Positions 4,742-23,858 are shown, counted from the stretch's first letter. The stretch is DNA of 32,000 nt from Planctomycetales bacterium (GCA_022646745.1 CP060262.1:570001-602000); one strand, 5' to 3'. Translations and numbers: made by a program. Notes: a model not told the origin generated them from the letters alone.

Positions 4742-4845
4742 CAACATCAATCCTGCTCTGTCAAGGAATACACTGTCTCAATTCAGTCTTCAACTGCTCA
4801 AGAACCAGGGATGCCGGCCGATGAATGCAGCGGAGGCACCAGACC

Positions 4846-5860: not shown

Positions 5861-5866
5861 CGCGGC

Positions 5867-5872
5867 AGTTTA
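5867..5872 (-). promoter_or_regulatory. -10-like hexamer TAAACT, 6 nt upstream of GTG 5860 (leaderless-type arrangement)
   Basis: The minus strand reads TAAACT-GCCGCG-GTG. It fits TANNNT and has the same N6 geometry as six other starts in the window. Confidence 0.35.
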
Positions 5873-5884
5873 GCGCATGCGCAC

Positions 5885-6861: not shown

Positions 6862-6873
6862 TCAGCTGCCAGC

Positions 6874-6879
6874 TAGAAT
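6874..6879 (+). promoter_or_regulatory. -10 hexamer TAGAAT, 6 nt upstream of GTG 6886 (leaderless-type)
   Basis: Reads TAGAAT-ATCTCC-GTG with no SD. Confidence 0.45.
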
Positions 6880-6885
6880 ATCTCC

Positions 6886-7239
6886 GTGAAAAATGTCTTC
6901 TTCATCCACTGGGAGCCCGAGGAATGCGAGCAGTTCGCCGCGCAGATCAGCAAATGGGGCTACAACGTGATCAGCGAAAGCGGACAGCAGGCTGAGGCCT
7001 GCCGCCGCGTGAACGAAATGCAGCCGGACTGCGTTGTGATCAGCCTGCGCAAGTATGTCAGCGGCGGGCGTGAGGTCGGGCGCTTCATCGGCACCAACCG
7101 CGCCACTAAGGACATCCCGATCATCTACATGGACGGCCCGCGCGACACGCGGCGCGACCGCATCGCCGAGATCCTGCCGGATGCGAAGTTCAGCGCGATC
7201 CAGGACCTTGAGGCCACGCTCCAAGAATTGCTGGGCTAG
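6886..7239 (+). CDS. receiver (CheY-like) fold protein lacking the phospho-acceptor Asp (pseudo-receiver)
   Basis: 117 aa with an alternating beta/alpha pattern. PDCVVISLRK occupies the position where receivers have PDLVLLDLxMP. TKDIPIIYMDG corresponds to beta4 and AKF to the beta5 Lys. Confidence 0.6.
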   Translation: MKNVFFIHWEPEECEQFAAQISKWGYNVISESGQQAEACRRVNEMQPDCVVISLRKYVSGGREVGRFIGTNRATKDIPIIYMDGPRDTRRDRIAEILPDAKFSAIQDLEATLQELLG

Positions 7240-7268
7240 TCTGGCAATGCACCTGCCTGACAGCTGGC

Positions 7269-9617
7269 TTATTCGAACACGGCACTCACCAGATTGTCCT
7301 TGTCACCGGGCAGCAATGCGATGGGCACCCCGTCCACTGACAGGCAGATATTGCTGTACTTTGCAAATCCATCCAGCAGATTGCTGTCCAGCTCACGGTT
7401 CAGCACATAGGGCGCCTGCCAGCTGCTGCCTTCCGCGTCACGGGCGATGAACAGGCAGAGCTGCCCGAATATCTTGTACTGGTAGGGATTGCCAATTGCG
7501 GCAATCGCCGGCACGCCGCCATAGTCAACCAGGTTGCCAGGGCCACGGGCCATGAAGGCCCCGGTATAGCTCGGCTCTGACCACGTACCGCCATCCTCGG
7601 AGATACAGCGCGAAAATGCCAGCTTGTCACGCCGCTTGAGCTGGTCCATCCTGTCATCCACCATGGCCAACGCTGGCTTGCCACCGATGATTGACATGTC
7701 CAGCACACTAATACCGAACTGTGGGTTCCTGGCAACAAGCACCGGGCTGTCCCAGCTGCCGCCGGAAGCCTCGCTGGCCTTCATGAAATAGACCGCCTGG
7801 AACTCACCGGGCACCCGGGTTGACCAGGCAAGGCAAGGCATTCCGTCCCAGTCCGTCAACCGCACAGTTACCGTATCCTCATGGGCATCCAAGGCCCCCA
7901 GCTCGACTGCGGCATTCCACTGGTTGCCACTGCCATCCACTGCACTGCGGAAGTACCAGTTGTCACTGGAGCTGATGCTCTCGTACACGATCACCGGTCT
8001 GCCTGCAACCAGCTCGACCTGCACTGAGTCCAGCGCAAGCTGTCCACTGATGCTGAAGCATGCCACGGGGTTGCTCCAGGCCAGTCCCTCTGCGCTTTCC
8101 GCTTCACTCATGTAAACGACTGTCTCGAATGAATCCTCAATGTACTGGGAGAAGTAAACCTGCGGCCTGCCGGAATGCTCCAGCAGTCCCAGTGAATTCA
8201 GGCTGGCCTGCCCGGTCAGCGGCGCAGCCACAAGCTGTGGACCGCCACTGAAACTGGCGGCAGCGCCGTCCGCAGCCCGCCAGTAGACCACGCTTGCGTT
8301 GTCAGGCCATCCCTGCGTAATGAGCGCCGGATACCCCGCGACCACGGCAATGCTGGGCCTCTTGTCAAACTGCTGCAGCTTACCGTCATCCTGTACCACA
8401 GTTGGATGCCAGCCTGCCGCGCTCTCCGTCACCAGCAGCTGCCGAATGTCCTCGGACATGTTGAAATTGGCATCGACCACCTGCAGGCGGACTTCATACA
8501 GGCCGGACTGCGAAAAGCTGTGGCTGAACTGGGGCTGGGTGGAATCACCGAGCGGATGCTCGTCCACGAACCAGTAGTAATGCTCAATCGGCGCGTTCCC
8601 CGGCGTACTGCCGGAGGCATCAAACAGCACATCCTCACCGGCAACGGCCCTGAAGGCATCACCCACACTCATCACGGCCTGCGGCGGTGCCGTGGCATAT
8701 TCGCCGAGCCAGACACGGTCCAGGTACTGCTTGAACACGTCACCACTGCCGGATGTCACGGTAATGCGCGGCCGGTATTCTCCTGCGGCCGGCATCTCCC
8801 AGTGCGCAGTGAAGGACACATTGTCTCCTCCTGCGGGCTGCGAGACATAGTCCGGCTGCGCATCGTTATTGAAGTCGATCTCGATCGTATCCAGGCCAGC
8901 ATAAGCCGGATCAGCGTCGGCATTCACGTGCATGCTGGCAGCCAGGTCCCCGATGCCGCCCTGCAGCGGGCTGACTGTCATGTATGAACTGATCTGGGGC
9001 CTGAAGCTGCGACCGAAGCGCAGCCAGCGCAGCGTCATCTCGCTGGCCTCCGTTGCCAGGATGCCGAATGTCATCACCCTGTACTGGTTGCTGTAGTCAT
9101 GCCAGTTGCCGAACCAGGCATCGTAGGTATCGTCCTGTGCCCGGTACTGCAGCGGGAAGGAGTCCCAGCGGCCGGTGCTGTAGTTGGCAATCACTAGGAA
9201 GCTGCCGGCCTGCACGTTCTCCTCATCAATGCCGAGGGTGAGGATCGGGTCGTAGGTCGGCTGGTCTGCATATGTGCGTTCGGTATAGACCTGCCAGAGG
9301 GCAAATGCCGGGCCGGGGCTTTCACTGTCCGGCATCAGGTGCAGTGACGAATCAGGATTGTCGACGCTGAGGTTGCGGCTGGCCAGCCCCGGATCGAAGT
9401 CAATCGCCTGCAGCAGGTTCTCCTGCTGGTTGACCCGGATGGATGGCTCACGCTCCAGCTCCTCCAGGCCTGGCAAGTGGAATGACACAGGAGTGGACTG
9501 CAGCACCGCTGGAGCCTCGACTGCCGGCTGGCTGTTGCCACCACAGGCTGCCAGCACTGCCAGGGAGAAAATGACGACGCAGCATGTGAGCAAGCCGCTT
9601 CTAGAAGTAATAGCCAT
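7269..9617 (-). CDS. large lipoprotein, paralogue 1: N-module, 2 Ig/PKD-like units, Asp-box (BNR-type) beta-propeller
   Basis: 782 aa. Signal peptide with lipobox LAAC. One PKD unit reads VLFDASGSTPGNAPIEHYYWFVDE...YEVRLQVVDANFN. Six Asp-box-like motifs are present (e.g. SEDGGTWSEP, VDGSGNQWNAA, ASGGSWDSP), alternating with G-x-P-A/V-hydrophobic strands. GAAGGG SD lies 7 nt upstream. Confidence 0.85.
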   Translation of the reverse strand: MAITSRSGLLTCCVVIFSLAVLAACGGNSQPAVEAPAVLQSTPVSFHLPGLEELEREPSIRVNQQENLLQAIDFDPGLASRNLSVDNPDSSLHLMPDSESPGPAFALWQVYTERTYADQPTYDPILTLGIDEENVQAGSFLVIANYSTGRWDSFPLQYRAQDDTYDAWFGNWHDYSNQYRVMTFGILATEASEMTLRWLRFGRSFRPQISSYMTVSPLQGGIGDLAASMHVNADADPAYAGLDTIEIDFNNDAQPDYVSQPAGGDNVSFTAHWEMPAAGEYRPRITVTSGSGDVFKQYLDRVWLGEYATAPPQAVMSVGDAFRAVAGEDVLFDASGSTPGNAPIEHYYWFVDEHPLGDSTQPQFSHSFSQSGLYEVRLQVVDANFNMSEDIRQLLVTESAAGWHPTVVQDDGKLQQFDKRPSIAVVAGYPALITQGWPDNASVVYWRAADGAAASFSGGPQLVAAPLTGQASLNSLGLLEHSGRPQVYFSQYIEDSFETVVYMSEAESAEGLAWSNPVACFSISGQLALDSVQVELVAGRPVIVYESISSSDNWYFRSAVDGSGNQWNAAVELGALDAHEDTVTVRLTDWDGMPCLAWSTRVPGEFQAVYFMKASEASGGSWDSPVLVARNPQFGISVLDMSIIGGKPALAMVDDRMDQLKRRDKLAFSRCISEDGGTWSEPSYTGAFMARGPGNLVDYGGVPAIAAIGNPYQYKIFGQLCLFIARDAEGSSWQAPYVLNRELDSNLLDGFAKYSNICLSVDGVPIALLPGDKDNLVSAVFE

Positions 9618-9692
9618 GACCCAGCCCTTCGGGTTGTATCCCCACTGAATTTACGCGGGCCGCATAACAGTCAAAGACCGCGCAACCCTCTG

Positions 9693-9721
9693 ATCATAGC
9701 AAGCCAGACCTCAAAGTGCAA
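9693..9721 (-). promoter_or_regulatory. candidate sigma70-type promoter for paralogue 1: TTGCAC-N17-TATGAT
   Basis: On the minus strand, -35 TTGCAC is at 9721-9716 and -10 TATGAT at 9698-9693. The same -35 hexamer and spacing occur upstream of paralogue 3. Confidence 0.35.
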
Positions 9722-9823
9722 TGAACACTTCCTCCTGGCTGGAGGTAAAGACTTCCCGAACTGTTTCCCTGCGGCTGCGCACAACAGCCATGCGAAAGCT
9801 GAATCAATCCGTGGCTGCCAGTC

Positions 9824-12190
9824 CTAGTAAAAGACGGCACCGACCACAGTTTCCGCAGCCTGCTGCAGCACCGCAGTTGGCACGCCATCCACCATCAGGC
9901 AGATCTCCCGCGGATAGAACACTGAGCCATAGTAGTCACTGTCCAATACCTGCTGGTCCACCACTGGGGGTGACCAGCGGGTTCCAAGCGGGTCCTCGGC
10001 AATGCTCATCGCGATGGACAGGCTGTCCCCGAAGCTGCCACCGCCGTCAAGGTATGGGTCAGCAATCATCACGATCGCCGGCAGGCCATCCAGCTCCAGC
10101 AAATTGCCGAAGAAGGCCATGCTCTCACGGCTGAACATGACGGGCGTGGACCATGTTTCCGCGTTGTCATCAAGCGCGGTAAGGTAACCCCCTCCGCCGT
10201 CCATCACCGGGCAGTCCCCAGCGAAGTATCCGCCGAAGTAAATCGCTGGCCGGCCATTGATGATCTCAAAGTCCAGCATGCTGAACACGCCGTAGTAGTC
10301 GTTCTCCATCGTGACGATGGCATCATTCCAGGCGCTGCCATCCTCCACACTGGCGGATGAGAAGCACAGTGTCTCAACGTTGTCAGCATCAGTCTGCTGC
10401 CAGGCCACACAGGGCTTGCCGTTCCATTCCGTCATGAAGGCATTGAAATCAGCAAACTGTGGATCAATCGGGCTGACCTGGGTTGCCGCATTCCAGTTAA
10501 GCCCCATTGCATCAGTGGCGCTGCGGTACTTCCAGACCTTGCCCTCGCCGGCCGCGCGGTAGAAGATCGCCGGCTTGCCCGCGATGACCTGCACGTCCAG
10601 TGAGTCAAGGTACTGGTCCGCGATGATGTCCTCCTCGGAGAAGCAGAGCTGCGGATCGGACCAGGTGCTGCCATGCACATCCGAAGCATATGTCACCAGC
10701 AGTTCGTCGTCAAACACCGGACTGCGGTCGCGGACGTAGAACACAGCCGGCTTGCCATTGATTTCCAGCAGACCGGCCGGGATGTTGCTGAAATTGTCAT
10801 CCGGCCCGAGCACGTCCACGGAGACCGTCGGCCAGCTGGAAGCCTCAGGATCCAGCGCGCGCAGGTAGTTGACCTGGCCCACCGGATACTCGGTCAGCAG
10901 GGCGGGATGCCCGGCGATCACAGCCAGCTCCCGGCGGTTCTCAAAACCCAGCAGTGAAGTCTCGCTGGAGGGAACCGATTGCCAGCCGTGCTCCACCTCG
11001 TTGACAAGCAGGCGCAACTCAGCTGAGCTCGTGTTGAAGTTGCCATCACTGACCCTGACGGACAGCCGGTAGCTGCCGGCCATCGGGAAGCTGTATTCAA
11101 ACACGGGCTCAGTACTGCTGCCCAGCCGACGGCCGTTGATGAACCAGTCATAGCCGCTGATCGGGGAACTTCCCGCCGCGCTGGCGCTTGCATCAAACTG
11201 GATCAGCTCATTGACAAGCCCGTATGGTGCGCCTGCCACCTGCAGGTCGGCCAGCGGGGGGTCAGTGCCGGGCTGGCCCAGCCAGGCATCCTCGAAATGC
11301 TCATACGTTTCCCCCGTCCCGGAGGTGATCAGCAGACGCGGTGTGTAGTGCCCCGGCTGCAGCAGGACGAAGGGTGCCTCCGATTCGTAGACACTCAGCG
11401 ATTTTGCCGCCAGCAGTTCGTCGATGCTGCCGTCATTGTCGTAGTCAACCTCGACACTGGCAATCCCGCCGAAGCGGTCATCTCCGGCCTCATAGACCCT
11501 GGCCCAGACGGACAGCTCGGCGCTTTCGGCCTGGCTGGCTGATTGCTGCAGCTCACAGTCGATCTCCGGCCGGAACAGTTCACCAAAGCGCAGGCGCTTG
11601 AGCCTGGCCGGGCCACTGCCCGTCACCAGCACACCGCAGAACATCGCGGCGAACTCGTTGTCACGGTCCTGCCAGCCGGAGAATTCCGCCCGGTAGTCAC
11701 CGCTTCCGGCATCAAGCAGCAACTCACTGATTTCCCAGCGTCCGCTGGCCAGGTTGGCGACCAGGAAGAAGGCCTGCGTACCCTCCGGGAATTCCGTGAA
11801 GGTAGCGTTCACCACCGGGTCGAGCGCCGGTCCCTCGGCATAGCTGCGCTCAATCGCCAGCCGGTAAAGCGCATAGGCATGGCCCGGTTGCGGATCACCG
11901 GGGCTGAGCACCGCCACCTTGGCGGACTTGTCCTCAAAGGCATTGCGATGCGGCAGCAGGCTGCAGAACTGGGTTCCGGAAATGCCGCGATCCTGCTGGT
12001 TGGCAACCGTACTCGGGTAACGCAGCAGCTCCGAAACCGCCGGCAGGCCCATAGCCCCATCATCCGTCCCGGCAATGACCGGCTGCAGTGCCGCATCGCT
12101 GCCGGTCCGGGGACCGGAAGATCCGCAGCCTGCGGCCAGCATTGCCAGCGCAAGCAGCACTCCCCCAAATGCAGTTCCCAGCCGGGTCAT
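9824..12190 (-). CDS. large lipoprotein, paralogue 2 (same architecture)
   Basis: 788 aa from the ATG at 12190 (MTRLGTAFGGVLLALAMLAAGC, lipobox LAAGC). AGGAG lies 5 nt upstream and overlaps the TAG stop of the upstream paralogue. Asp boxes include DVHGSTWSDP, VEDGSAWNDA and DDNAETWSTP. The longer ORF to 12241 would overlap the upstream gene. Confidence 0.85.
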   Translation of the reverse strand: MTRLGTAFGGVLLALAMLAAGCGSSGPRTGSDAALQPVIAGTDDGAMGLPAVSELLRYPSTVANQQDRGISGTQFCSLLPHRNAFEDKSAKVAVLSPGDPQPGHAYALYRLAIERSYAEGPALDPVVNATFTEFPEGTQAFFLVANLASGRWEISELLLDAGSGDYRAEFSGWQDRDNEFAAMFCGVLVTGSGPARLKRLRFGELFRPEIDCELQQSASQAESAELSVWARVYEAGDDRFGGIASVEVDYDNDGSIDELLAAKSLSVYESEAPFVLLQPGHYTPRLLITSGTGETYEHFEDAWLGQPGTDPPLADLQVAGAPYGLVNELIQFDASASAAGSSPISGYDWFINGRRLGSSTEPVFEYSFPMAGSYRLSVRVSDGNFNTSSAELRLLVNEVEHGWQSVPSSETSLLGFENRRELAVIAGHPALLTEYPVGQVNYLRALDPEASSWPTVSVDVLGPDDNFSNIPAGLLEINGKPAVFYVRDRSPVFDDELLVTYASDVHGSTWSDPQLCFSEEDIIADQYLDSLDVQVIAGKPAIFYRAAGEGKVWKYRSATDAMGLNWNAATQVSPIDPQFADFNAFMTEWNGKPCVAWQQTDADNVETLCFSSASVEDGSAWNDAIVTMENDYYGVFSMLDFEIINGRPAIYFGGYFAGDCPVMDGGGGYLTALDDNAETWSTPVMFSRESMAFFGNLLELDGLPAIVMIADPYLDGGGSFGDSLSIAMSIAEDPLGTRWSPPVVDQQVLDSDYYGSVFYPREICLMVDGVPTAVLQQAAETVVGAVFY

Positions 12191-12198
12191 TTCTGCTC

Positions 12199-14550
12199 CT
12201 ATTCGAACCTTGCGGTCACCACACCACCGACGCTGCTCCATAACAGTGCAGTCGGCACTCCGGCATTGTCAACACAGATTTCCGTCGGATGGATTACCGG
12301 GAAGTAGTAGTACCCGTCCACGCCGTACTGGGACATCTGCACCGGCGCTTTCCAGCTTGTTCCAGCGGAGTTCTCCGCCAGGTTCATGGCAAGCCGCAGG
12401 TCACCTGATGGATATGGATCGCCAATGGTCACGAGCGCAGGCTTGCCATCCAGCTCCATCAGCCTGCCCAGCTGGGGCTGGATCAGGCGCGAGAAGAATT
12501 TCGGCTCCGTCCATTCAGTGGCGAACTGGTCGGTGCAGGCCTGGTAGCCGAAGCGCTTGCTCATTTCCACGCAGTCGGGCCGGTAGCTGACAAAGTAGGC
12601 GATCGCAGGCAGTCCGTTGACAATCGCCAGGTCAAGGATATCGGCGCCTGAGCTGGAACCCTCCGAGTGCACGGCTTGCTCTTCGTTCCATGCTGATCCA
12701 TCAGAAGCGGATGCCGACATGAAGAAGAAGTCGTCCGTGTCGTCAAGCGACTGCTCTCCCCACGCCAGGCAGGGGCTGCCATCCCAGTCCGCCAGGTGCA
12801 CGCGCCGCTCAAGCGGCGAATCAACCTGGTCCAGCTCCGTGGCAGTGTTCCAGCCCGTGGCCGCCGCATCCACCGCAGAGCGGTAGCGGAATGCACTGTC
12901 TTCACCACCGAGCGCGTACAGCACCGCCGGGATGCCGCCGATCAAATGTACCTGCACTTCGCGGCTGAAGCCGTCAATGATGAACTCCGGCTCACTGAAG
13001 CAGACCTGCTCACTGCCCCAGCTGTCACCGGCGGCGTTGCTGCCCTGCACCATATACAGCTCGTCGTCTGATTCATCCGCATAGCTGCGAACAAAGAAAA
13101 CCGTCGGCAGTCCGCCGATCTCCAGCAGGCCGACTACCCGGTTGTCATATGTTCCGAACTGGACACTCGCTGCAATACTGGCAGTCGCCGGCCAGGAGGC
13201 ACCCTGTGCATCATTGGCACGCACGTATTGCACTGAACCCACTTCCGGCCCGGCCGTGGCCATGGCCGGATTGCCGGCAATGATACCGATCCGGCTGTGG
13301 TCCTGGAATCCCAGCAATGAAGTCTCATAGCTCACTGCAGGCTGCCAGCTGCGTTCATCCTCACTGACATTGATCTCCACGAAGGCAAATGCACGGTTGA
13401 AGCTGGCATCCTCAACGTAGACGGTGACCTCGTACCGGCCGGCGGTCTCGAAGGCATACTCGAGCACAGGGGTTTCCGTATGCGCCAGCCAGCGGTTCTC
13501 CACGCGCCAGCTGTAACCGGTGATGGCGCTGTCGCCGGGCAGGGAAGCCGAGGCATCAAATGTGATTTCCTCCCCGGGAGCATGGACGGGTCCACCAGAT
13601 GCAGTCAGCGAAGCCTGCGCAGCCGTGCTGCCTTCCTCGCCGAGCCAGACATTGTCAAGGTACTCGAAGACCGCACCGCTTTCGGATGTGACCACGATGC
13701 GCGGGTTATGTACACCCGGCTCGGGAACCATGTAGGTTTCAGTAGCGATGTACTTGTCCCCTTCTGAATTCTCTGCGAGGTTGTCAATCACACCGTCATT
13801 GTCGAAGTCAAACTCCACAGTGGAGATGCCTCCGTACTGCGGGTCTCCATCCGGATAGACCCAGGTATTCGCCTGCAGGTCCGCTGTCGCCCCCTGCTGG
13901 CTGGACAGCAGCATCTGCGTCTCAAGTGTGGGCCTGAAGCCATCGCCGAAGCGCATGCCGTTCAGCCGGGCGCTGATATCGCCTGCGGCGAGGATGCCGA
14001 AGGTCATCACGCTGTATTCGTTGTCGCGATAGTCCCAGGTGCCGAAGTCCGCATCGTACAGGCCGCTCTCGCTGTCCCGCTCCAGGGGGATCACCTGCCA
14101 GCGGTTCTGGCTGTAGTCCACGATCAGGAAGAAAAGCGGCCCGTTGCCAGCCACTTCCGTCAGGTTCATATGCACGATGGGCTGGTAGGCCGGGCTCTCT
14201 CTATAGCTGCGATCACGAAACATCTGGAAAAGCGCAAAGGAGATGCCGGGAGCCTCGCTGCCCGGTTCCAGCAGGATCGCATTCTGCTCCACCAGCTCCG
14301 TGATGTTGGCGTGCGGCAGGTGTGCACAGTAATCCATGCCGTCCAGCATGTTCTGCTGGTTGTTGACAACAGCCGCCGGTTCACGGTCCAGCAGCTCCAG
14401 TGTTGGCAGGCCACTTTCCACAACGGGAATGATCGCCGCCTGCATGCCACTGTCCCCCGGCTGGCTGCTGCCGCCACAGGAAGCAAACATCAGCAATGCC
14501 GCGGATGCAAGCATGCCGGGCAGCATGCCCCTGACTGTCCAAACTCGCAT
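12199..14550 (-). CDS. large lipoprotein, paralogue 3 (same architecture)
   Basis: 783 aa with lipobox FASC. PKD unit ITFDASASLPGDSAITGYSWRVEN...YEVTVYVEDASFN. Asp boxes ASDGSAWNEE, NAAGDSWGSE and NSAGTSWKAP. GAAGGA SD lies 7 nt upstream. Confidence 0.85.
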   Translation of the reverse strand: MRVWTVRGMLPGMLASAALLMFASCGGSSQPGDSGMQAAIIPVVESGLPTLELLDREPAAVVNNQQNMLDGMDYCAHLPHANITELVEQNAILLEPGSEAPGISFALFQMFRDRSYRESPAYQPIVHMNLTEVAGNGPLFFLIVDYSQNRWQVIPLERDSESGLYDADFGTWDYRDNEYSVMTFGILAAGDISARLNGMRFGDGFRPTLETQMLLSSQQGATADLQANTWVYPDGDPQYGGISTVEFDFDNDGVIDNLAENSEGDKYIATETYMVPEPGVHNPRIVVTSESGAVFEYLDNVWLGEEGSTAAQASLTASGGPVHAPGEEITFDASASLPGDSAITGYSWRVENRWLAHTETPVLEYAFETAGRYEVTVYVEDASFNRAFAFVEINVSEDERSWQPAVSYETSLLGFQDHSRIGIIAGNPAMATAGPEVGSVQYVRANDAQGASWPATASIAASVQFGTYDNRVVGLLEIGGLPTVFFVRSYADESDDELYMVQGSNAAGDSWGSEQVCFSEPEFIIDGFSREVQVHLIGGIPAVLYALGGEDSAFRYRSAVDAAATGWNTATELDQVDSPLERRVHLADWDGSPCLAWGEQSLDDTDDFFFMSASASDGSAWNEEQAVHSEGSSSGADILDLAIVNGLPAIAYFVSYRPDCVEMSKRFGYQACTDQFATEWTEPKFFSRLIQPQLGRLMELDGKPALVTIGDPYPSGDLRLAMNLAENSAGTSWKAPVQMSQYGVDGYYYFPVIHPTEICVDNAGVPTALLWSSVGGVVTARFE

Positions 14551-14583
14551 AACCCAGTCCTTCTTCGGGACTAACCCACTGTA

Positions 14584-14603
14584 TTGAAACTACTGTTGAA
14601 ACT
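14584..14603. repeat. direct repeat TTGAAACT x2 (12-nt period) in the leader of paralogue 3
   Basis: TTGAAACT occurs at 14584-14591 and 14596-14603. The repeat lies inside a segment absent from the otherwise homologous leader of paralogue 1. Confidence 0.3.
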
Positions 14604-14631
14604 GTGAAAATGGCCCGTCAATAACAGAAAC

Positions 14632-14660
14632 ATGGTATCAGCGAGGCAATTCCAGTGCAA
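14632..14660 (-). promoter_or_regulatory. candidate sigma70-type promoter for paralogues 3 and 2: TTGCAC-N17-TACCAT
   Basis: On the minus strand, -35 TTGCAC is at 14660-14655 and -10 TACCAT at 14637-14632. Confidence 0.3.
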
Positions 14661-14827
14661 GTAACAATATAAGGTGTCACTTGTACATACGGAAGTGTTT
14701 CCCGGTGTATATGCAGCCCAACATCCCATTGGTGCAACTGTTCCCGTTGTGTGCGTTTGGCATCCATTTCTTAATTGGAGAGCTCAGACCCGGCGCGCGG
14801 CACTGTGCCGACTGGTTCACAAGGCTG

Positions 14828-15613
14828 TCAGACTGCTGCCCATCGCCGTGGCAACCAGGAGGCAATAATCGCTGCAACAATCAAGGCCCCAAGCAGGATC
14901 AATGTGTACTCGATTCTCGCCGTTTCCATGAGCTGGATCGATCGCTCGTAGTAAAGGCCTGACTTCATCGCGTTCAAGTAGATCCTGAATGGCAGCAATG
15001 ACAGGTAATAAACCGAAAGATACAGAAGTGCCGCGAGCTGAATGCGAAGCCATGTATGGATCCCCGGCAGGTGAAGACTGACTGCTGCTGTGATGAAGCT
15101 CAGCAACATTGCCATGCAGCCGAGTGAAATTGTCAGCCAGGCAGCGAATTGACTCTGGTCTGGGTTGTTCTGATAAATGGGAATGATATAGTGAAGCTGT
15201 GACAGGATCGTAATTGGCAGCAGGTAAAACAGGAAGTTGCCAACTGAAACCCGTACGAAGCGATTGCGGATCAGCGCGAGTATCTGCCTGTCAGTGTACG
15301 CCCCTTTCAGCTCGGATGGGGGCCGCAGGTAATCCAGCTGAAAGCAGGTAAAGATGACAAGCAGGAGGGAGTGGACATAGCCGCCGTAGGGGTAGGCGTA
15401 CTCGAAGGGCAAGCCCTGCAGTAATCGATTCAGTTTCGATGCGAAGGGCAATTCTCCTGGCAGCCCGATGGCAAGCGCAACCAGCAGGTTGAATGCAAAG
15501 GACCCGATAACCCCCCACACAAGCCATCGATTGGCAGCGAACCATTTTGTCCTGCGCCATTTGAACCAGGTATCGAGACCCGTGCCACCGGCTGCTGGTA
15601 ATGCTCCGTCCAC
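14828..15613 (-). CDS. polytopic membrane protein (about 6 TM), function unknown; ABC-2-permease-like topology at best
   Basis: 261 aa with six long hydrophobic segments. GTG at 15613 is the only plausible start, because there is no internal Met before TM4. GC is visibly lower than in the flanks (100 of 200 nt counted from about 14866 are G or C). Confidence 0.7.
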   Translation of the reverse strand: MDGALPAAGGTGLDTWFKWRRTKWFAANRWLVWGVIGSFAFNLLVALAIGLPGELPFASKLNRLLQGLPFEYAYPYGGYVHSLLLVIFTCFQLDYLRPPSELKGAYTDRQILALIRNRFVRVSVGNFLFYLLPITILSQLHYIIPIYQNNPDQSQFAAWLTISLGCMAMLLSFITAAVSLHLPGIHTWLRIQLAALLYLSVYYLSLLPFRIYLNAMKSGLYYERSIQLMETARIEYTLILLGALIVAAIIASWLPRRWAAV

Positions 15614-15619
15614 CTTGCG

Positions 15620-15625
15620 ATTATA
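15620..15625 (-). promoter_or_regulatory. -10 hexamer TATAAT, 6 nt upstream of GTG 15613 (leaderless-type)
   Basis: The minus strand reads TATAAT-CGCAAG-GTG with no SD. Confidence 0.5.
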
Positions 15626-15642
15626 AGCGCCAGAAACGCAGT

Positions 15643-15667
15643 GAGGCCCGGGACATGCCCGGGCCTC
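15643..15667 (-). terminator. GC-rich hairpin downstream of the 637-aa lipoprotein gene
   Basis: 10-bp perfect stem GAGGCCCGGG / CCCGGGCCTC with a 5-nt loop. On the minus strand it is followed only by a short TTT tract. Confidence 0.5.
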
Positions 15668-15694
15668 GGTAGCTGCAATCTGCCGCTGATCAAC

Positions 15695-17608
15695 TTAGAA
15701 GTCCGGCGAGAAGCTGCCGCTGATGTAGTAGCGGGAGCTGCCCTCCAGCGCCGTCACCAGCAGGGCGTAATCACCCGCCGGCGTGAAGGCACCGGTTGAC
15801 ATTACGCCGTCCATGCCGGTGTTGAGCTGCTTCACGAAGTCCCACTCGGCACCATTCCAGCGCACGAGGTACAGCGAGACCTCCCCGAACAGCTCGTCAA
15901 TGATGTCCAGTTCGAACTCGATCGAGCCGCTGACCTCGGTGCTGAAGCTGTAGTAGTCCTGCATGTCCGGGCCGTTGATGTCGCCGCCGACCTCACCCAG
16001 CAGGTCGCTGAAGGGCAGCGTGGGCAGCCCGTTCATCTCGTCATAGCCGTTGTTCGGCTCAGACTCGATGTAGTCATATGCCGTGTTGCCGGTGACGATC
16101 AGCTCGAACTGCTTCGTGGCGGCAATGCCAGTGTTGTCAACCACCCGCGCCGTGCCCATGAAGTGGCCGGGGCGCTTGGGGGCGTCGAACAGGAAGCTGC
16201 CGCTGCCGCCGCTGTTCACCTCGAAGTGGCCGTCGCCGTTCAGGTCCACGCTCCAGATCGAGATGCTGCCGTCCGGGTCGTAGCTGTTGTCAATGCTGAA
16301 GGCGAGCGCCGCACCGCTGGCGACCTCCATCTGGTAATCCTCGATGATCACCACCGGGGCCTCGCTCAGGCTCATGTCGAGGCTGAGCGTGTAGTCAATG
16401 TCCATGCCGTCGCCACCGAAGGGGCTGTCCACCACGAGGTAGTACTGGCCCGGATCAAGGCTGCCATGCATTTCCTTCAGCAGTCCCTTGATCTCGGTGG
16501 TGCGCACCGGCTCGATGTCGGAACCGTTGTTGAAGGAGCGGTAGAGCATCAGGCGGGCGCCGAAGTCTGACAGCGACAGGCCGAAGTCAATGCTGGCGGA
16601 CTGCTGCAGCTCGAAGCTGAACACGTCGTAGTCATCGCCATGCACGCCGTCGTTGCCCCAGTTGCCCTTGAAGCCGGACATCCAGGAGGCCTGCAGCTGC
16701 TGGGCCTGCTCCACGTCGTCATTGTCCTCCACCTCGTCGTAGCCGGCGACATCCTGCACGATCACCGGCAGGTAGTCATAGGCGATGTTATCGAGGTCGT
16801 CGGTGATGCGCAGGCCGGCCATGTAATAGCCCGGGTTGAGGTAGAACTGCACCAGGTCCGGGTCGGCCCCGTTGTCAATCCAGTTGCCGTCACCGAGCGG
16901 ATCGAACTCGTACTTCATCACGTCGCCACCGTAGGCCACGCTGTCGATGCCGTTGAGCGTGATCGCCGTCGGGGCCAGCCCGATCGCCATGTCGCTCGTG
17001 AGCACCGCGGTCAGCTCCAGCTCGCCGCCGACGCGGATGCTGTTGATCGCGGTGTCATCCTGCCCGTCACCGAGCAGCACCGCCAGCAGCAGGTCGTCGC
17101 TGAAGCGGATGTAGTCCGCCAGCTCGCCGGTCTCGACATCGCCGTTCTCTGGAACACCGAAGAAATCCCAGCGGTCCGACTCCCAGTTGGCAAGCCCGAG
17201 GTACAGCGTGCCGGGGGTCGGCTCGCCAGTGGCGGAAATGTCCACCACCACATGGTCCTCATTCTGGTAGTCCGGCAGCCAGAAGCGGTAACCCGCCCAG
17301 GCCACGCCCTGCACATCGTTGTACTTCGGCTGCATCAGCAGCTGGTCGAGCTTCTCGTGCACGTTCTCGCCGCTGTTGAAGTCCAGCAGGTACTCATTGC
17401 CGTAGCGCCAGCGCTGCTGGCTGACTTCCGAGGCACCCTTGTCCACCGCTGAGGGTGCGGGCAGCGCTGAGGCATACTGCTGCATGGCCGGGCTGCTCAC
17501 CTGGCCCGGCTGGGCATCCATCTCCGTCATCTGCATGCCGCCCCCGCAGGATGCGGCAACCGTCAAGACAAAAATCGCAGCCAGTGCTGCGATACCCTTT
17601 CCAAACAT
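15695..17608 (-). CDS. lipoprotein with shared N-module, two PKD-like units and two pre-peptidase C-terminal (PPC) domains
   Basis: 637 aa from the ATG at 17608 (MFGKGIAALAAIFVLTVAASC). GGAGA lies 7 nt upstream. PPC signatures are EVEDNDDVEQAQ...GDDYDVFSF and IESEPNNGYDEMN...DMQDYYSFS. The longer ORF to 17752 would run through the upstream terminator. Confidence 0.85.
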   Translation of the reverse strand: MFGKGIAALAAIFVLTVAASCGGGMQMTEMDAQPGQVSSPAMQQYASALPAPSAVDKGASEVSQQRWRYGNEYLLDFNSGENVHEKLDQLLMQPKYNDVQGVAWAGYRFWLPDYQNEDHVVVDISATGEPTPGTLYLGLANWESDRWDFFGVPENGDVETGELADYIRFSDDLLLAVLLGDGQDDTAINSIRVGGELELTAVLTSDMAIGLAPTAITLNGIDSVAYGGDVMKYEFDPLGDGNWIDNGADPDLVQFYLNPGYYMAGLRITDDLDNIAYDYLPVIVQDVAGYDEVEDNDDVEQAQQLQASWMSGFKGNWGNDGVHGDDYDVFSFELQQSASIDFGLSLSDFGARLMLYRSFNNGSDIEPVRTTEIKGLLKEMHGSLDPGQYYLVVDSPFGGDGMDIDYTLSLDMSLSEAPVVIIEDYQMEVASGAALAFSIDNSYDPDGSISIWSVDLNGDGHFEVNSGGSGSFLFDAPKRPGHFMGTARVVDNTGIAATKQFELIVTGNTAYDYIESEPNNGYDEMNGLPTLPFSDLLGEVGGDINGPDMQDYYSFSTEVSGSIEFELDIIDELFGEVSLYLVRWNGAEWDFVKQLNTGMDGVMSTGAFTPAGDYALLVTALEGSSRYYISGSFSPDF

Positions 17609-17718
17609 TACAAGGTCTCCAATGGGTCCGTTACGGACGTGGATTGGGGTCCATCTGCCTGAACCATATCTGTTACCCGCAGGCGGGCATTCCAAACCGC
17701 ATTTCCGGAAAATGGTCC

Positions 17719-17748
17719 AAAAAAAAGGGCCGGGATCAACCCGGCCCT
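17719..17748 (-). terminator. rho-independent terminator of the PKD-repeat gene
   Basis: The minus strand reads AGGGCCGGG-TTGAT-CCCGGCCCT followed by a run of T residues, and starts 23 nt after the stop at 17771. Confidence 0.88.
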
Positions 17749-17770
17749 CCATTTTCGCTGCTGCTCCAGC

Positions 17771-20500
17771 CTATGCCGGCGGCTGCTCGACGAAGAAGCT
17801 GTCGAAGCCATAGCCGTCCAGGCCGTCATTGTCGAACACCCGCAGGTGGATGTTGTACAGCACCGAGCCTCCTTCCGAGGAGAACTCAATGTCGGTCAGG
17901 GTCGCCGGCCCGTCGATGATCTCGTATACGAAATCCCCGTCCAGGTCCCAGTCGTACTGCACGATCGTGCCGTCATTGTCGAAGCTCGTGCTGCCGTCCA
18001 GCGTAATGAAGCGTGAGCTTCCGTAGTAGACGTCAGTCCCTTCAAAGTTGTCGTCTGCCGCCGGCGTACGGACGATCACACCCTCCGGCCACCAGGGCAC
18101 CGTCCAGGTGTAGGAAGTCTCATCACTCAGGCCGTCGTTGTCGAACACGCGCAGGGTGACCGTCTTGGTGTCGCCCGGCTCACCGAAGAACTGGAAGTCC
18201 TCGTAGTACGGGCCCATGTCCACCTGGTCCTCCGGATCGTCGTAGTCACCGTCGTTGTTGTAGTCAAAGTCGTAGCGCACGATGGTGCCGTTGCCATCCC
18301 ATGAACCCTCACCATCCCAGCGGATGCCCTCTGTCTGCCAGACATAGGCAGTCAGCACCGCGGTCGGCGGGGTGAGGATCACGGACTGGGAACTGGCAAA
18401 GCCCGTCGCACCGTCATTGTCAACAACCTCCAGGTAGAAGTTGTAGGTGCCGTCATCCGTCAGCTGCACCGTCTGGGTCGGCCCGCCGTCGATCACCTCA
18501 TAGGTGAAGTCGCCGTCAAGGTCCCAGTTGTACTGCACGATCGTGCCGTCGCTGTCGGTGGAGCCCGTGGCGTCGAGCTGGATGTCCAGCGTGCCGGACA
18601 TCGGGATCGCGCCGCTCGGGGTGTCATTCGCGATGTCACCGGCCGGCGGCTCGTTCACGTCATAGTTCAGGGTGGCAGTGTCCTGCGCACCGTCATCATC
18701 CGTCACGCGCACGCTGACCGGGTAGATCCCACCGCTGTTGTAGAACTGCTGCTGGCTGGCCGCACCGCCGATGATCTCGAAGGTGCCGTCGTCATCCATG
18801 TCCCAGTCGTAGCTCACGATCGTGCCGTCACTGTCGGTGCTGCCGGAGGCGTCGAAGGTCACCTCAAATTCCGGCGCACTGCCGGTACCGCTGGCCGGGT
18901 CGGCCGTGATGTCCGCCACCGGCGGGTTGTTGATGTCAAGGCTGACGGTCGCCGTATCCTGCAGGCCGTCGTTGTCAGTCACGCGCACCGCGGCCGTGAT
19001 CGCGCCTCCGGCGCTGTAGCTGTGGTTCACGCTCGCGCCACCGTCGAGGGTCTCGAAGGTGCCGTCGTTGTCAAAGTCCCAGTCGTAGCTCACGATCGTG
19101 CCGTCACTGTCAGTCGAACCGCTGGCATCGAGGGCCACATCCAGCGGTGCATCACCGCTGTCCGGAGTCGCGCTCAGTGCGGCGACCGGCGGGTCAAGCA
19201 CGGTCACGGTCGCGCTGGCGGTTGAGCTGTCGCCATCGTCATCGGTGGCACGCACGGTGACGGTGTGGTCACCCAGGGCGGTGAACTGCGCATTTTGCGT
19301 GTCGCCACCGTCCAGCACCTCGAAGGTGCCGTCGTTGTCCATGTCCCAGTCGAAGGCCACGATCGTGCCATCGGTGTCAGTTGAGTCACCGGCGTCAAAC
19401 AGCACATCCAGCGGGGAGACACCGCTGTCCGGAGTGGCATTCAGCGCCGCGACCGGCGGGTCATTGGTGGGCAGCACGACGATCGCGTTGACAGTCACCG
19501 TGGCGGTTGCAGTGTCCTCGTTGCCCTTGTCATCACTGACGCGCACGGTGATGGTGTAGATGCTCTCACCGTTCTCACCGACGCTCGGGGCACTGGTGCC
19601 CTTGAATGACGCGGACTGTGAGAGGTTGTTGTACTGCGCTGTCTGGGTCGGCCCGCCGTCCAGCACCTCGAAGGTGCCGTCGTCATCGAGGTCCCAGTCG
19701 TAGGTCGTGATCACGCTGTTCACGCTACTGCTGCCGCTGGCGTCGAAGTCCACCTCAAGCGGGGCATCGCCACTGGTCGGCTCAGCCGCCAGTGCTGCCG
19801 TGACGCTGGATGCCGGCTCGACCAGGTTGACGGTGAAGGTATCGCTGTCACTCAGGCCGTTGTCATCCGTCACGCGCAGGGTGACGGTCTTCGTGCCGAA
19901 GCTGGAATACTCGTGGGAGGGGGTGGCTCCGCCGTCCAGCAGGTCGAAGGTGCCATCGTTGTCGAAGTCCCAGTCGTAGCTGACGATCTCGCCATCCAGG
20001 TCAGTGCTGGCCGTGCCGTCAAAGTTGACCAGCAGCGGGTTGCCATCGTCCTGGGCACCACTGCCAGCCGCGGTGGGCGGCATCTGCGGGTCGCCGACGG
20101 TGATCACCGCGAAGTCGGTGTCCGTCGCGCCACCATCATCCGTCACGCGCAGCACCACGTTGAAGGTGCCGGCTTCCTCATACGTATGGTTGACGGAGGG
20201 CGCGCTGCCGTTGCGGTCGAAGGTGCCGTCGCCATCGAAGTCCCAGGCGTAATCAACGATCATGCCGTCAGGGTCCGTGCTGCCGCTGCCGTCCAGGTTG
20301 ACGGTGAAGGGCACTTCGCCACTGAGTTGCACCTGGGCTGCTGCCCGAGCGGCCAGTACGGCATTCGGCGACTGGTTGCCGCCTCCAGCGCTCAGGCTGT
20401 CCTCAACATCCCCTGATGAGAAGCAGCAACTTCCCAGCAGCAGGAGTGCCAGCAGGATCATCATCCTGTAAGGCTTTCCGTAGAGCTCTTGTTTCCGCAT
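17771..20500 (-). CDS. lipoprotein composed of nine tandem PKD domains
   Basis: 909 aa from the ATG at 20500 (MRKQELYGKPYRMMILLALLLLGSC, lipobox LLGSC). GAGGGA precedes that ATG. Nine copies of the motif S-T-D-x-D-G-x-I-V-x-Y-x-W-D-F/L/M-D-x-D-G-T-F. Confidence 0.9.
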   Translation of the reverse strand: MRKQELYGKPYRMMILLALLLLGSCCFSSGDVEDSLSAGGGNQSPNAVLAARAAAQVQLSGEVPFTVNLDGSGSTDPDGMIVDYAWDFDGDGTFDRNGSAPSVNHTYEEAGTFNVVLRVTDDGGATDTDFAVITVGDPQMPPTAAGSGAQDDGNPLLVNFDGTASTDLDGEIVSYDWDFDNDGTFDLLDGGATPSHEYSSFGTKTVTLRVTDDNGLSDSDTFTVNLVEPASSVTAALAAEPTSGDAPLEVDFDASGSSSVNSVITTYDWDLDDDGTFEVLDGGPTQTAQYNNLSQSASFKGTSAPSVGENGESIYTITVRVSDDKGNEDTATATVTVNAIVVLPTNDPPVAALNATPDSGVSPLDVLFDAGDSTDTDGTIVAFDWDMDNDGTFEVLDGGDTQNAQFTALGDHTVTVRATDDDGDSSTASATVTVLDPPVAALSATPDSGDAPLDVALDASGSTDSDGTIVSYDWDFDNDGTFETLDGGASVNHSYSAGGAITAAVRVTDNDGLQDTATVSLDINNPPVADITADPASGTGSAPEFEVTFDASGSTDSDGTIVSYDWDMDDDGTFEIIGGAASQQQFYNSGGIYPVSVRVTDDDGAQDTATLNYDVNEPPAGDIANDTPSGAIPMSGTLDIQLDATGSTDSDGTIVQYNWDLDGDFTYEVIDGGPTQTVQLTDDGTYNFYLEVVDNDGATGFASSQSVILTPPTAVLTAYVWQTEGIRWDGEGSWDGNGTIVRYDFDYNNDGDYDDPEDQVDMGPYYEDFQFFGEPGDTKTVTLRVFDNDGLSDETSYTWTVPWWPEGVIVRTPAADDNFEGTDVYYGSSRFITLDGSTSFDNDGTIVQYDWDLDGDFVYEIIDGPATLTDIEFSSEGGSVLYNIHLRVFDNDGLDGYGFDSFFVEQPPA
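18800..19111. repeat. 36-nt perfect direct repeat inside the PKD gene, 276 nt apart (one PKD unit)
   Basis: gtcccagtcgtagctcacgatcgtgccgtcactgtc occurs at 18800-18835 and 19076-19111. Similar but diverged copies lie near 17945 and 18521. Confidence 0.85.
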
Positions 20501-20562
20501 GTTTCCCTCTAACCGGCCCATCCAGGGCGGACCGTGCGTTCATTAAATTACCGTTAAGCGAG

Positions 20563-20570
20563 ATTATACA
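20563..20570 (-). promoter_or_regulatory. -10 element TGTATAAT for the PKD-repeat gene
   Basis: The minus strand reads TG-TATAAT, 62 nt upstream of the ATG at 20500. No good -35 is seen. Confidence 0.4.
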
Positions 20571-20580
20571 GACCGGCACG

Positions 20581-20595
20581 TGGACTGGCAGTCCA
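20581..20595. promoter_or_regulatory. 15-bp palindrome TGGACTG-G-CAGTCCA, possible regulator binding site
   Basis: Perfect 7-bp arms. It lies where the -35 of the PKD-gene promoter should be, in the divergent region shared with the nfo-like gene. Confidence 0.3.
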
Positions 20596-20634
20596 ATTCG
20601 CACACTCTGGTACTCAATGTCCCCGGCTTTCGCC

Positions 20635-20643
20635 TGCGATAAT
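20635..20643 (+). promoter_or_regulatory. extended -10 TGC-GATAAT, 6 nt upstream of ATG 20650 (leaderless-type)
   Basis: Reads TGCGATAAT-GGCCGG-ATG with no SD. Confidence 0.45.
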
Positions 20644-20649
20644 GGCCGG

Positions 20650-21507
20650 ATGAACTATCCGCAGGAGTTTGCGAAGCTCTACATCGGCCCCAGTGGCCGT
20701 CCGGTGGATTGTCCGCCGGTGAAACGCACGACCGGAGCGATAGAAAGCTGCATTGAGCATGGCTGGTCCACAATGGAGATCAGCTTCACGAACAACGTAT
20801 ATATAAAGGAGCGGGAGGCCCAGGAAGTGGCTGCCCTGCGTGAGGAAAAGGGATTTCCGCTCTCCTGCCACGGCTCGTACTTCATTAACCTTGCAAGTGA
20901 GGAGCCGGCGAAGATCGTCCAGAGCAAGGCCCGCATCATCCAGGGGGCAAGGCGCATCCAGCAGTGCGGCGGGCACAGCATCGTGTTCCACTCAGCCTTC
21001 TATGGCAGCATGGACCACGCCGATGTGACAAGGCAGGTTGTCGCGGAACTGAACGAAGTGCAGGGCCAGATGCAGGAGATGGGGGTTGAGGTCTGGCTGC
21101 GTCCGGAACTGACGGGCAAGCCGACCCAGCATGGCACGCCGCAGGAACTGGTGGAGGTCTGCAATGGTGTGGAGATGGCCCTGCCCTGCATCGACTGGTC
21201 GCACATGCACGCGCGCAACAATGGCGGCTGGAACAGTTACGACGAATGGTGCCAGCTGCTGGAACTGCTTGGGAAGGGGATCAAGAAGAACGTGCTGCAG
21301 CGCATGCACATGCATGTCAGCGGTATTGAATATGGTGAATCCGGTGAGAAGAAACACATCCCCCTGCCCCAGAGCGACCTGAACTACCGTGAGCTGATGA
21401 AGGCGCTGAAGGCCTTCGACGTACGCGGCACCCTGATCGTGGAAGCGCCTGATGAGAACCAGGCAGGTGATGTCGACCTGTTCATCGAGGCCTGGGAATG
21501 CGCCTGA
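20650..21507 (+). CDS. nfo: endonuclease IV-like TIM-barrel protein (AP endonuclease family 2 / xylose-isomerase-like fold)
   Basis: 285 aa. Metal-ligand-like pattern HGSYFINL, HSAFYG, RPELTG, DWSHMHA, HMHVSG and LIVEAP. The start was chosen by the -10 geometry, and ATG 20617 is the alternative. Confidence 0.72.
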   Translation: MNYPQEFAKLYIGPSGRPVDCPPVKRTTGAIESCIEHGWSTMEISFTNNVYIKEREAQEVAALREEKGFPLSCHGSYFINLASEEPAKIVQSKARIIQGARRIQQCGGHSIVFHSAFYGSMDHADVTRQVVAELNEVQGQMQEMGVEVWLRPELTGKPTQHGTPQELVEVCNGVEMALPCIDWSHMHARNNGGWNSYDEWCQLLELLGKGIKKNVLQRMHMHVSGIEYGESGEKKHIPLPQSDLNYRELMKALKAFDVRGTLIVEAPDENQAGDVDLFIEAWECA

Positions 21508-21514
21508 CAAATCA

Positions 21515-23842: not shown

Positions 23843-23852
23843 GGCTGCGCAG

Positions 23853-23858
23853 ATTATA
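23853..23858 (-). promoter_or_regulatory. -10 hexamer TATAAT, 10 nt upstream of ATG 23842 (near-leaderless)
   Basis: The minus strand reads TATAAT-CTGCGCAGCC-ATG with no SD. Confidence 0.45.

Follow-up and report, generated by a model that had tools for sequence, protein, structure and literature searches.

A strain-variable island of large lipoproteins and a six-helix membrane protein in a Planctomycetales bacterium

A stretch of 32,000 nucleotides from an uncultured wastewater bacterium, Planctomycetales (GCA_022646745.1, CP060262.1:570001-602000; hereafter the window) contains, between positions 7269 and 20521, six long minus-strand open reading frames (ORFs) that encode five large lipoproteins and one small membrane protein. 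An earlier note on this DNA, made from the sequence alone, had described the six consecutive genes as an island built around the membrane protein, and had suggested that they specify a surface recognition or capture apparatus. All six ORFs were found where the note had placed them. The question raised by the locus is whether these genes constitute a system and, if so, which of them belong together. As we show here, the conserved unit in the sequence examined comprises two strictly adjacent genes, encoding a lipoprotein with a shared N-terminal region (the N-module) and the membrane protein. The latter, rather than being the fixed centre of the island, is its most variable element and is swapped as a cassette.

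Linkage and exchange of the membrane-protein gene

The membrane protein (14828-15613, minus strand) consists of 261 aa, displays six hydrophobic helices and belongs to an unclassified family. The N-module, a region of ~165 aa for which there is no Pfam model, is common to the 637-aa and the 785-aa types of island lipoprotein. Hidden Markov model (HMM) searches for the two families covered the window DNA and the related loci that were recovered, including L005 (a strain-level relative), L001 (GCA_041395205.1), L006 (UBP7 HKST-UBA03) and L002 (a distant contig from the European Nucleotide Archive, ENA). The membrane-family HMM identified ten distinct members at five distinct loci, with L001 and L006 contributing three apiece and the window, L005 and L002 a single one, and there was a further hit, on contig L003, to the window allele itself; all ten adjoin lipoproteins that contain the N-module. 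The co-localization of the lipoprotein and membrane families, which the earlier note had proposed as a check, was thus observed in each of the five distinct loci, including the most divergent. Indeed at L002 the lipoprotein, P0004 (641 aa), is only 27% identical and its partner membrane protein ~20% identical, and the other neighbours differ, comprising an amino-acid permease and a dockerin-like protein. Proteins of L008-L011 with a weaker match to the N-module or propeller had no membrane-family member beside them in the HMM search. The family with the full architecture is very small, being confined to the window, L005, L001, L006 (which has 72-82% identical orthologues) and the distant P0004. 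When the membrane-family alignment was used in a word-indexed search for homologues, nothing emerged beyond the window protein itself and one relative already known, and two JGI metagenome scans, with the 637-aa family and P0004, respectively, found no relatives. UBP7 genomes have been recovered from the saline Shatin activated-sludge plant in a nine-year metagenome series (PMC8495973), and the L006 genome, which has HKST in its name, may come from that plant.

Comparison of the window with its relatives revealed how the membrane gene varies. The window and L005 are collinear, with 93-96% DNA identity by blastn, over positions 1-12156 and 15632-21774; the segment that breaks the collinearity (12157-15631, minus strand) holds the membrane gene and one of the three 785-aa-type lipoprotein genes, par3. 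No DNA homology to L005 was evident over 14811-15631, which corresponds to the membrane ORF ± 18 nt, and the two encoded proteins are 22% identical. With L001 homology was absent over 14647-15617, and the flanking DNA in these two comparisons is 76-96% identical. Similarly, when L001 is compared with L006 the flanks of the second membrane gene are 91-92% identical and that gene shows no DNA homology; the proteins encoded by their first membrane gene are 91% identical. The membrane coding sequence is a hypervariable cassette that is swapped exactly between near-identical genomes; exact replacement was seen twice, with 22-35% protein identity between the alternative alleles. On the upstream side the boundary is abrupt, as an inverted repeat, a TATAAT box and the position of the start codon (all described below) are kept in four genomes and divergence starts within the coding sequence. 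The earlier description of the gene as low in GC was borne out, with a GC content of 0.54 and a third-position GC content (GC3) of 0.645, compared with 0.60-0.63 and 0.74-0.88, respectively, in the neighbouring genes. Across the variable alleles GC3 ranges from 0.44 to 0.71, against 0.74-0.89 for the lipoprotein genes, which suggests, from codon usage, exchange with a wider gene pool. It could be argued that the low GC simply reflects the hydrophobic amino acids encoded; this was ruled out as GC3 is also low and differs between alleles. An integron-like cassette was likewise rejected, since no attC-like repeats flank the membrane gene, where the conserved upstream hairpin is all that was seen, and searches for plasmids, phages and viral contigs gave no sign of a mobile-element or phage origin.

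The lipoprotein genes also differ between relatives. The window contains three of the 785-aa type, in the order par3, par2 and par1; L005 has par2 and par1; L001 carries a second, 628-aa, PPC-type paralogue together with par3 and a different 779-aa paralogue; and L006 contains par3, a par2 pseudogene in two pieces, an additional paralogue of 826 aa and par1. The par3 protein, which has no copy in L005, is 84% and 82% identical to its orthologues in L001 and L006, respectively, par2 is 95% identical to its L005 orthologue, and par1 is 94% (L005) and 72% (L006) identical to its counterparts, with none in L001. Paralogues have been gained, lost and pseudogenised between relatives, yet are under purifying selection. 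In L006 the par2 orthologue (4629-7010, plus strand) is split into ORFs of 156 and 606 aa, an apparent pseudogene or frameshift. In L001 and L006 new copies of the membrane gene lie directly after lipoprotein paralogues at a second site, giving one to three copies per locus across the set. The window membrane allele was also found in eight other assemblies (L012-L019, from several ENA and Logan samples) on contigs of just 2-6 kb that end around the locus, consistent with strain heterogeneity breaking the assemblies. Window-type and L005-type alleles occur under neighbouring ENA accessions (ERZ27309060, and ERZ27309083 to ERZ27309117), which suggests, but does not prove, that strains with the two types coexist.

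Members of the membrane family share three motifs at equivalent positions: an N-terminal G-L-x-x-W-F-x-x-R-x-x-x-W, P-P-x-E-L-x-G after transmembrane helix (TM) 2 and L-x-L-P-R/G after TM4. With a topology predicted from hydropathy and the positive-inside rule, the conserved motifs would fall in cytoplasmic segments, which show 26-36% pairwise identity, and the predicted periplasmic loops would be the most variable parts, at 11-14%. Searches of Pfam, NCBIfam, PADLOC and the PDB with up to nine alleles, the PDB also by profile, returned no match. An AlphaFold model built from a two-sequence input had a confidence score (predicted local distance difference test, pLDDT) of 53.7, and Foldseek gave no match below E 0.6 for this low-confidence model, a result that is uninformative.

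Although the earlier note had presented the island as a single unit, it consists of several transcription units and is not one operon, because terminator-like hairpins follow two of the lipoprotein genes and the membrane gene has a TATAAT box of its own; thus 'island' is an apt term and 'operon' is not. The GC-rich hairpin after the gene for PKD9, a 909-aa lipoprotein (17724-17750, minus strand), has an 11-bp stem with eight GC pairs and is followed by TTTTTTGG. After the 637-aa gene there is a perfect 10-bp inverted repeat, GAGGCCCGGG / CCCGGGCCTC (15643-15667, minus strand), which is probably a terminator. The TATAAT box (15620-15625, minus strand) lies 6 nt upstream of the start codon of the membrane gene, which is GTG in the window and ATG in three relatives. 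This arrangement suggests that the membrane gene is transcribed from its own promoter as a leaderless or near-leaderless message. Upstream of par3 there is an AT-rich intergenic region of 277 nt (14551-14827, minus strand) that shares only 78% identity with the DNA preceding the par2 orthologue of L005.

Modular architecture of the lipoproteins

That the lipoprotein genes are genuine and under constraint, and did not arise as ORFs by chance in GC-rich DNA, is indicated by the dN/dS values against L005 of 0.06 for PKD9, 0.16 for the 637-aa protein, 0.15 for par2 and 0.27 for par1, at dS 0.1-0.2. Where alternative start codons exist the shorter starts chosen in the earlier note are favoured, as positions 20500, 17608 and 12190 are consistent with the genes called in L005, whose products have 909, 637 and 789 aa. 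For the 637-aa gene, start 17608 is preferred over an extended 685-aa ORF because the terminator-like hairpin at 17750-17724 would fall within the longer version and a matching gene call exists in the relative. Pattern matching identified a signal peptide and a lipobox cysteine, at residues 18-25, in all five large proteins (LAAC, AAGC, FASC, AASC and LGSC). Beyond PKD and a weak PPC match, the Pfam, NCBIfam and PADLOC libraries returned nothing for the six island proteins, with no transporter or defence model among the results. In agreement with the earlier reading, these scans matched no catalytic, ATPase, TonB-dependent receptor, secretin or regulator family.

PKD9 (17771-20500, minus strand; lipobox LGSC) consists, as had been proposed, of nine PKD units, evidenced by a Pfam PKD_4 score of 283.5 bits (cut-off 27; PKD domain, PF18911/PF00801) and by eight G-x-I-V-x-Y-x-W-D anchors plus one variant. 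Its orthologues are 98.8% (L005) and 78% (L001) identical, and the most distant locus, L002, has no PKD9. Since PKD9 has no N-module, there is no support for including it in the core module, and it is treated here as an adjacent gene. The 637-aa lipoprotein (15695-17608, minus strand), whose orthologues are 96% (L005) and 73% (L001) identical, has a lipobox and an N-module (HMM match, E 3e-51) followed by PKD, PPC/collagen-binding-like, PKD and PPC/collagen-binding-like units. The Pfam PKD_4 score of 38.0 bits exceeds the cut-off of 27, and the PPC match (PF04151) is weak, its 15.3 bits falling short of the 25.9 required. However, a profile built from four orthologous and paralogous proteins matched the PKD-like domain of clostridial collagenases at residues 432-507 (E 3e-6) and their collagen-binding/PPC domain at residues 497-630 (E 9e-8), with a first copy at residues 323-408 (E 0.008), which supports the domain order originally read for this protein.

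The three tandem paralogues, par3 (12199-14550, 783 aa), par2 (9824-12190, 788 aa) and par1 (7269-9617, 782 aa), are all on the minus strand, have the same architecture and are mutually 33-39% identical over their full length. Every component assigned to them in the earlier note was seen, comprising a lipobox, the N-module, two Ig/PKD units and a C-terminal region of ~380 aa. The one Pfam-detectable PKD unit spans approximately residues 310-385 and is preceded by the second, Ig-like, unit; PKD_4 scores are 35.4 bits for par1 and 36.0 for par3 (cut-off 27), and par2 scores 22.5 yet aligns with the others. The last 380 residues, which had been read as a six-motif BNR-type propeller, matched nothing in Pfam, NCBIfam or the PDB sequences by single-sequence or profile searches, and no BNR family was matched in Pfam at E up to 0.1 by any of the three paralogues. 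An AlphaFold model from a six-sequence alignment predicts that the C-terminal 380 aa of par3 (12202-13353, minus strand; residues ~400-783) fold into an all-beta propeller, with pLDDT mostly 70-90 over residues 420-783. In this model there are seven four-stranded blades, and not six, with seven G-x-P-A strands ~55 aa apart and six degenerate Asp-box-like turns (x-x-D-x-x-G-x-x-W). The propeller fold, the loose motifs and the alternating strands of the earlier reading were therefore recovered; the canonical Asp-box, S-x-D-x-G-x-T-W, is largely missing, a relaxed pattern finding one match in par2 and none in par1 or par3. A link to BNR_2 (PF13088) is suggested transitively by homologues, as P0020 (37.6 bits) and P0021 (33.0 bits) exceed the Pfam cut-off of 31.4; some homologues carry a type IX secretion system sorting tail. 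Against 1.84 billion representative proteins the propeller profile detected 1,865 clusters with an E-value limit of 1e-3, of which 184 also came within a limit of 1e-30; most are long multidomain proteins. As there are so many clusters, some of which pass BNR_2, the propeller is not a new domain in itself, but a BNR-related one that is widespread and poorly annotated.

With respect to function, the structural neighbours of the modelled propeller are those of a generic propeller. Foldseek gave the best TM-scores, 0.67-0.69, to the seven-bladed PLL lectins of Photorhabdus (PDB 5c9l, 8q83), followed by the GH145 enzyme BT3686 (0.64), with six-bladed sialidases at ~0.5; the Porphyromonas gingivalis sialidase was retrieved at E 1.3e-8, and GH43 and GH93 enzymes were also present. 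Among the nine family members with the full architecture, invariance is almost entirely confined to the G-x-P-A and W positions that recur as part of the structural repeat, the exceptions being Y442, R444 and D745; no conserved polar constellation stands out in this alignment, which lends no support to an active site. GH33 sialidases are characterized by six blades, an arginine triad, a Tyr/Glu nucleophile pair and an Asp acid/base; neither an arginine triad nor another invariant catalytic set is present among the family-invariant residues here, and the blades number seven. A match to a characterized enzyme family, which the earlier note had said would count against its proposal, did not emerge from Pfam, NCBIfam, PDB sequence searches or Foldseek. 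The paralogue alignment also contains conserved cysteines in the propeller, which, together with the lipoboxes, fit an extracytoplasmic location. Apart from the N-module, all modules of the lipoproteins are thus of a binding type, namely Ig/PKD units and, after them, a seven-bladed BNR_2-related propeller or pairs of PKD and PPC domains resembling the collagen-binding tail of clostridial collagenases.

Possible functions of the locus

The locus is a plasticity zone in which paralogues have been duplicated, lost and pseudogenised and membrane alleles have been exchanged precisely, from the start codon through to the stop codon, in some cases for alleles whose codon usage is foreign. The interpretation that we favour, with slightly less than even confidence, is that it represents a lineage-specific, strain-variable envelope locus, in a lineage labelled UBP7, whose core is an N-module lipoprotein and a six-helix inner-membrane protein of an unclassified family. 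The lipoproteins would be non-catalytic ligand-binding or adhesion proteins outside the cytoplasm, in which the N-module sits next to the membrane and the Ig/PKD spacers project the propeller or PPC units towards polymeric ligands such as a glycan or protein. The membrane protein may be the membrane-embedded partner of the N-module; its variable side would then be exposed to the periplasm, its three conserved motifs would face the cytoplasm and touch a conserved component there, and allele replacement and paralogue turnover could reflect diversifying or frequency-dependent selection on the parts that face the envelope. The 'recognition or capture apparatus' of the earlier note is borne out to the extent that PKD, PPC and propeller modules occur on lipoproteins with no recognizable enzyme; the role itself we infer. 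It should be emphasized that several observations weigh against this interpretation. Support is derived from sequence and models, and neither the N-module (pLDDT < 50-60 in the full-length paralogue model) nor the membrane protein (pLDDT 54) has a well-modelled fold, the topology of the latter coming from hydropathy and the positive-inside rule only. That no catalytic motif was found is a negative result, obtained with a propeller that is divergent and has glycosidases among its structural neighbours. Nor is there visible co-variation between the membrane allele and the lipoproteins next to it; the 637-aa protein is kept to its last codon where the allele differs. Finally, four of the five loci come from close relatives (orthologues 72-99% identical), in which synteny is weak evidence, and L002 is the sole independent data point.

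These last considerations bear directly on a somewhat unlikely alternative, that there is no system, and that unrelated surface lipoprotein genes and fast-evolving membrane genes occupy a recombination-prone plasticity zone, their adjacency reflecting the shared ancestry of close relatives. The separate transcription units, with terminator-like hairpins and a promoter box specific to the membrane gene, are in keeping with such a view, as are the differences in gene content between relatives, the narrow lineage that supplies four of the five loci and the recombination-like jump in divergence at a DUF899 gene elsewhere in the window. In contrast, all ten membrane-family members found adjoin N-module lipoproteins, and in L001 and L006 the extra membrane-gene copies again directly follow lipoprotein paralogues at a second site. 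It is mainly the distant L002 pair, retained at 27% and ~20% identity among different neighbours, that weakens the argument from ancestry. Exact replacement of the alleles between strains 91-96% identical, the atypical GC3 of several of them, the predicted variability of the periplasmic loops and the presence of one to three copies per locus could instead be explained if the membrane protein served, within a polymorphic recognition or toxin system, to determine immunity or identity, much as polytopic immunity proteins do or IdsE does in the self-recognition of Proteus, with the lipoproteins as recognition or delivery parts. This proposal is improbable, as scans of the six proteins and of neighbouring genes detected no toxin, Rhs, contact-dependent inhibition, type VI secretion or other domain for delivery, the C-terminus of the upstream lipoprotein is conserved where the membrane allele differs, showing none of the co-variation of toxin-immunity pairs, and the lipoproteins end in propeller or PPC domains and not in variable C-terminal tips.

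Two further alternatives assign a biochemical activity to one half of the pair. The Foldseek neighbours of the propeller listed above, the P. gingivalis sialidase, GH145 BT3686 and the GH43 and GH93 enzymes, together with relatives that pass Pfam BNR_2, raise the prospect that the paralogues are divergent sialidase-, GH145- or GH43-like glycoside hydrolases, and the cluster a polysaccharide-degradation locus. We consider this very unlikely: the window proteins have no match to glycosidase families in Pfam, NCBIfam or PDB sequences, the best TM-scores belong to seven-bladed lectins, the family-invariant residues are almost all structural repeat positions, and the window genes scanned include no accompanying transporters, regulators or other carbohydrate-active enzymes. 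The membrane proteins, for their part, might be highly divergent subunits of ABC-2-type (type V) permeases that handle a substrate connected with the lipoproteins and use an ATPase encoded elsewhere. In Wzm/TarG-type structures the N-terminal amphipathic segment and the TM2-TM3 loop are the contacts of the permease with its ATPase, and the island protein, of ~260 aa with six helices and N-in topology, has both a basic amphipathic N-terminal segment and a TM2-TM3 cytoplasmic loop that are conserved, while the tandem members in L001 and L006 could form heterodimers. Nevertheless, nine members gave no ABC2_membrane match at E up to 10, no ATPase gene was found among the scanned window genes or those called in L001, L002 and L005, the PDB profile search was negative and no type V permease was among the listed Foldseek matches to the low-confidence model, and this is the proposal to which we attach the least probability.

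Returning to the envelope-locus interpretation, a bolder form, which we regard as rather doubtful, is that N-module lipoproteins and hypervariable membrane proteins make up an undescribed, horizontally exchanged envelope system in which the membrane allele sets a strain-specific property and balancing selection maintains many alleles per community. That property might be, for example, the choice of lipoprotein for docking, the discrimination of self from non-self, or resistance to a phage or predator by which the apparatus is exploited. Should the pairing be functional, it would define two families without a Pfam or NCBIfam model, a ~165-aa lipoprotein N-module and a ~260-aa six-helix membrane protein, and a way of organizing surface binding proteins in a candidate phylum with no cultured members. 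If it is not, the locus is still a well-resolved hotspot of strain-variable surface proteins, of the kind that break metagenome assemblies. Exact swapping of the membrane coding sequence between genomes that are 91-96% identical points clearly to strong selection, or to frequent exchange, at the cell envelope.

Neighbouring genes and known systems

Several features of the surrounding DNA are recorded here. A gene at 6886-7239 (plus strand) encodes a 117-aa stand-alone CheY-like receiver (PDB response regulators, E 0.003-0.03; Pfam Response_reg, E 0.077) in which, by reading of the sequence, a serine occupies the position expected for the phospho-accepting aspartate (PDCVVISL). In four genomes this gene and the last paralogue are convergently oriented, and the DNA of the receiver gene is unusually conserved, being 92% identical to that of L001, compared with 77-84% for neighbouring genes. 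The receiver-like protein was considered as the cytoplasmic partner, and dropped because its gene is missing from the distant locus L002. In L002 itself a 590-aa protein with a weak dockerin-type match (1079-2851, plus strand; E 0.006) is encoded upstream of the lipoprotein-membrane protein pair, with the oppositely oriented amino-acid permease gene between them. The DUF899 gene of the window (3115-3855, minus strand) is 72.5% identical to its L005 orthologue (dS 1.08), against 92-100% for its neighbours (dS 0.1-0.4), and by this divergence appears to be a second patch of recombination or replacement. At 25766-26695 (minus strand) a 309-aa protein combines a C-terminal MafB19-like/cytidine-deaminase domain (residues 160-303) with an unannotated N-terminal region of 160 aa; it is preceded by three same-strand ORFs (22976-25778) without a Pfam match. 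Between 27269 and 29690 (minus strand) a gene for an extracytoplasmic function sigma factor (29067-29690) is followed by same-strand ORFs of 191 and 404 aa that have no Pfam match and are possibly an anti-sigma factor and its partner, and a DUF3187/MetA-pathway-like protein is encoded just upstream of the sigma factor gene, at 29839-31143.

How the island relates to characterized systems can be considered part by part. The tail of the clostridial collagenases ColG and ColH, which is non-catalytic, displays PKD-like and collagen-binding domains in the order seen, twice, in the 637-aa family. In contrast with these secreted enzymes the 637-aa protein has no peptidase M9 domain, is lipid-anchored, contains the additional unclassified N-module and has a Pfam PPC score below the cut-off (15.3 versus 25.9 bits). 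By analogy it may work like the substrate-binding tail of a clostridial collagenase from which the enzyme has been removed. The three paralogues share with BNR/sialidase propellers and PLL lectins a modelled all-beta propeller with Asp-box-like turns, and have homologues that pass BNR_2; they differ from BNR_2 proteins and sialidases in having no BNR_2 match of their own, seven blades as opposed to the six of sialidases and a degenerate Asp-box, and from PLL lectins in that the sequence identity of the propellers is just 12-13%. As modelled, the paralogues look like propeller lectins, or BNR proteins, carried on Ig-type spacers.

Similar considerations apply to the membrane protein. With polytopic immunity and identity proteins, such as IdsE of Proteus mirabilis and those conferring immunity to pore-forming bacteriocins, it has in common that it is small and polytopic and that its alleles differ sharply between near-identical strains. 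A cognate toxin, a delivered partner or a co-varying neighbour was not found for the island protein, in contrast with those systems; no toxin or defence domain was detected, and the upstream gene is kept to its stop codon where the allele changes. The resemblance, drawn by analogy, is one of population-genetic behaviour only. The permeases Wzm, TarG and NosY of the ABC-2 (type V) group are comparable in size, in their six helices, in the basic amphipathic N-terminal segment and in the conserved TM2-TM3 cytoplasmic loop; the island protein departs from them in lacking a family match, a neighbouring ATPase and structural support.

At the level of the whole locus the closest comparison is with the surface glycan-binding proteins (SGBPs) of the Bacteroidota polysaccharide utilization loci (PULs). 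SusE/SusF-like SGBPs are lipid-anchored, multi-domain, non-catalytic proteins, with Ig-like spacers and distal binding domains, that occur as tandem paralogues. From general knowledge of these proteins, the island lipoproteins are alike in their lipid anchors, Ig spacers, distal binding domains and tandem paralogy. They are unlike them in that the locus has no SusC/SusD pair, TonB-dependent receptor, glycosidase or regulator, the host does not belong to the Bacteroidota and the partner is a six-helix inner-membrane protein. Pfam scans of 32 window proteins, the six of the island and 26 others, revealed neither a SusC-like TonB-dependent transporter nor a SusD-like lipoprotein, in accord with the earlier statement that the island does not match a PUL. 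Among the categories compared, only the generic ones of lipoprotein and PKD domain apply by their own defining features. The single domains are ordinary; their combination, in which an unclassified N-module and an unclassified membrane family are coupled with exact cassette swapping, is not described in the libraries searched, and the island takes its place among the variable multigene families of surface lipoproteins.

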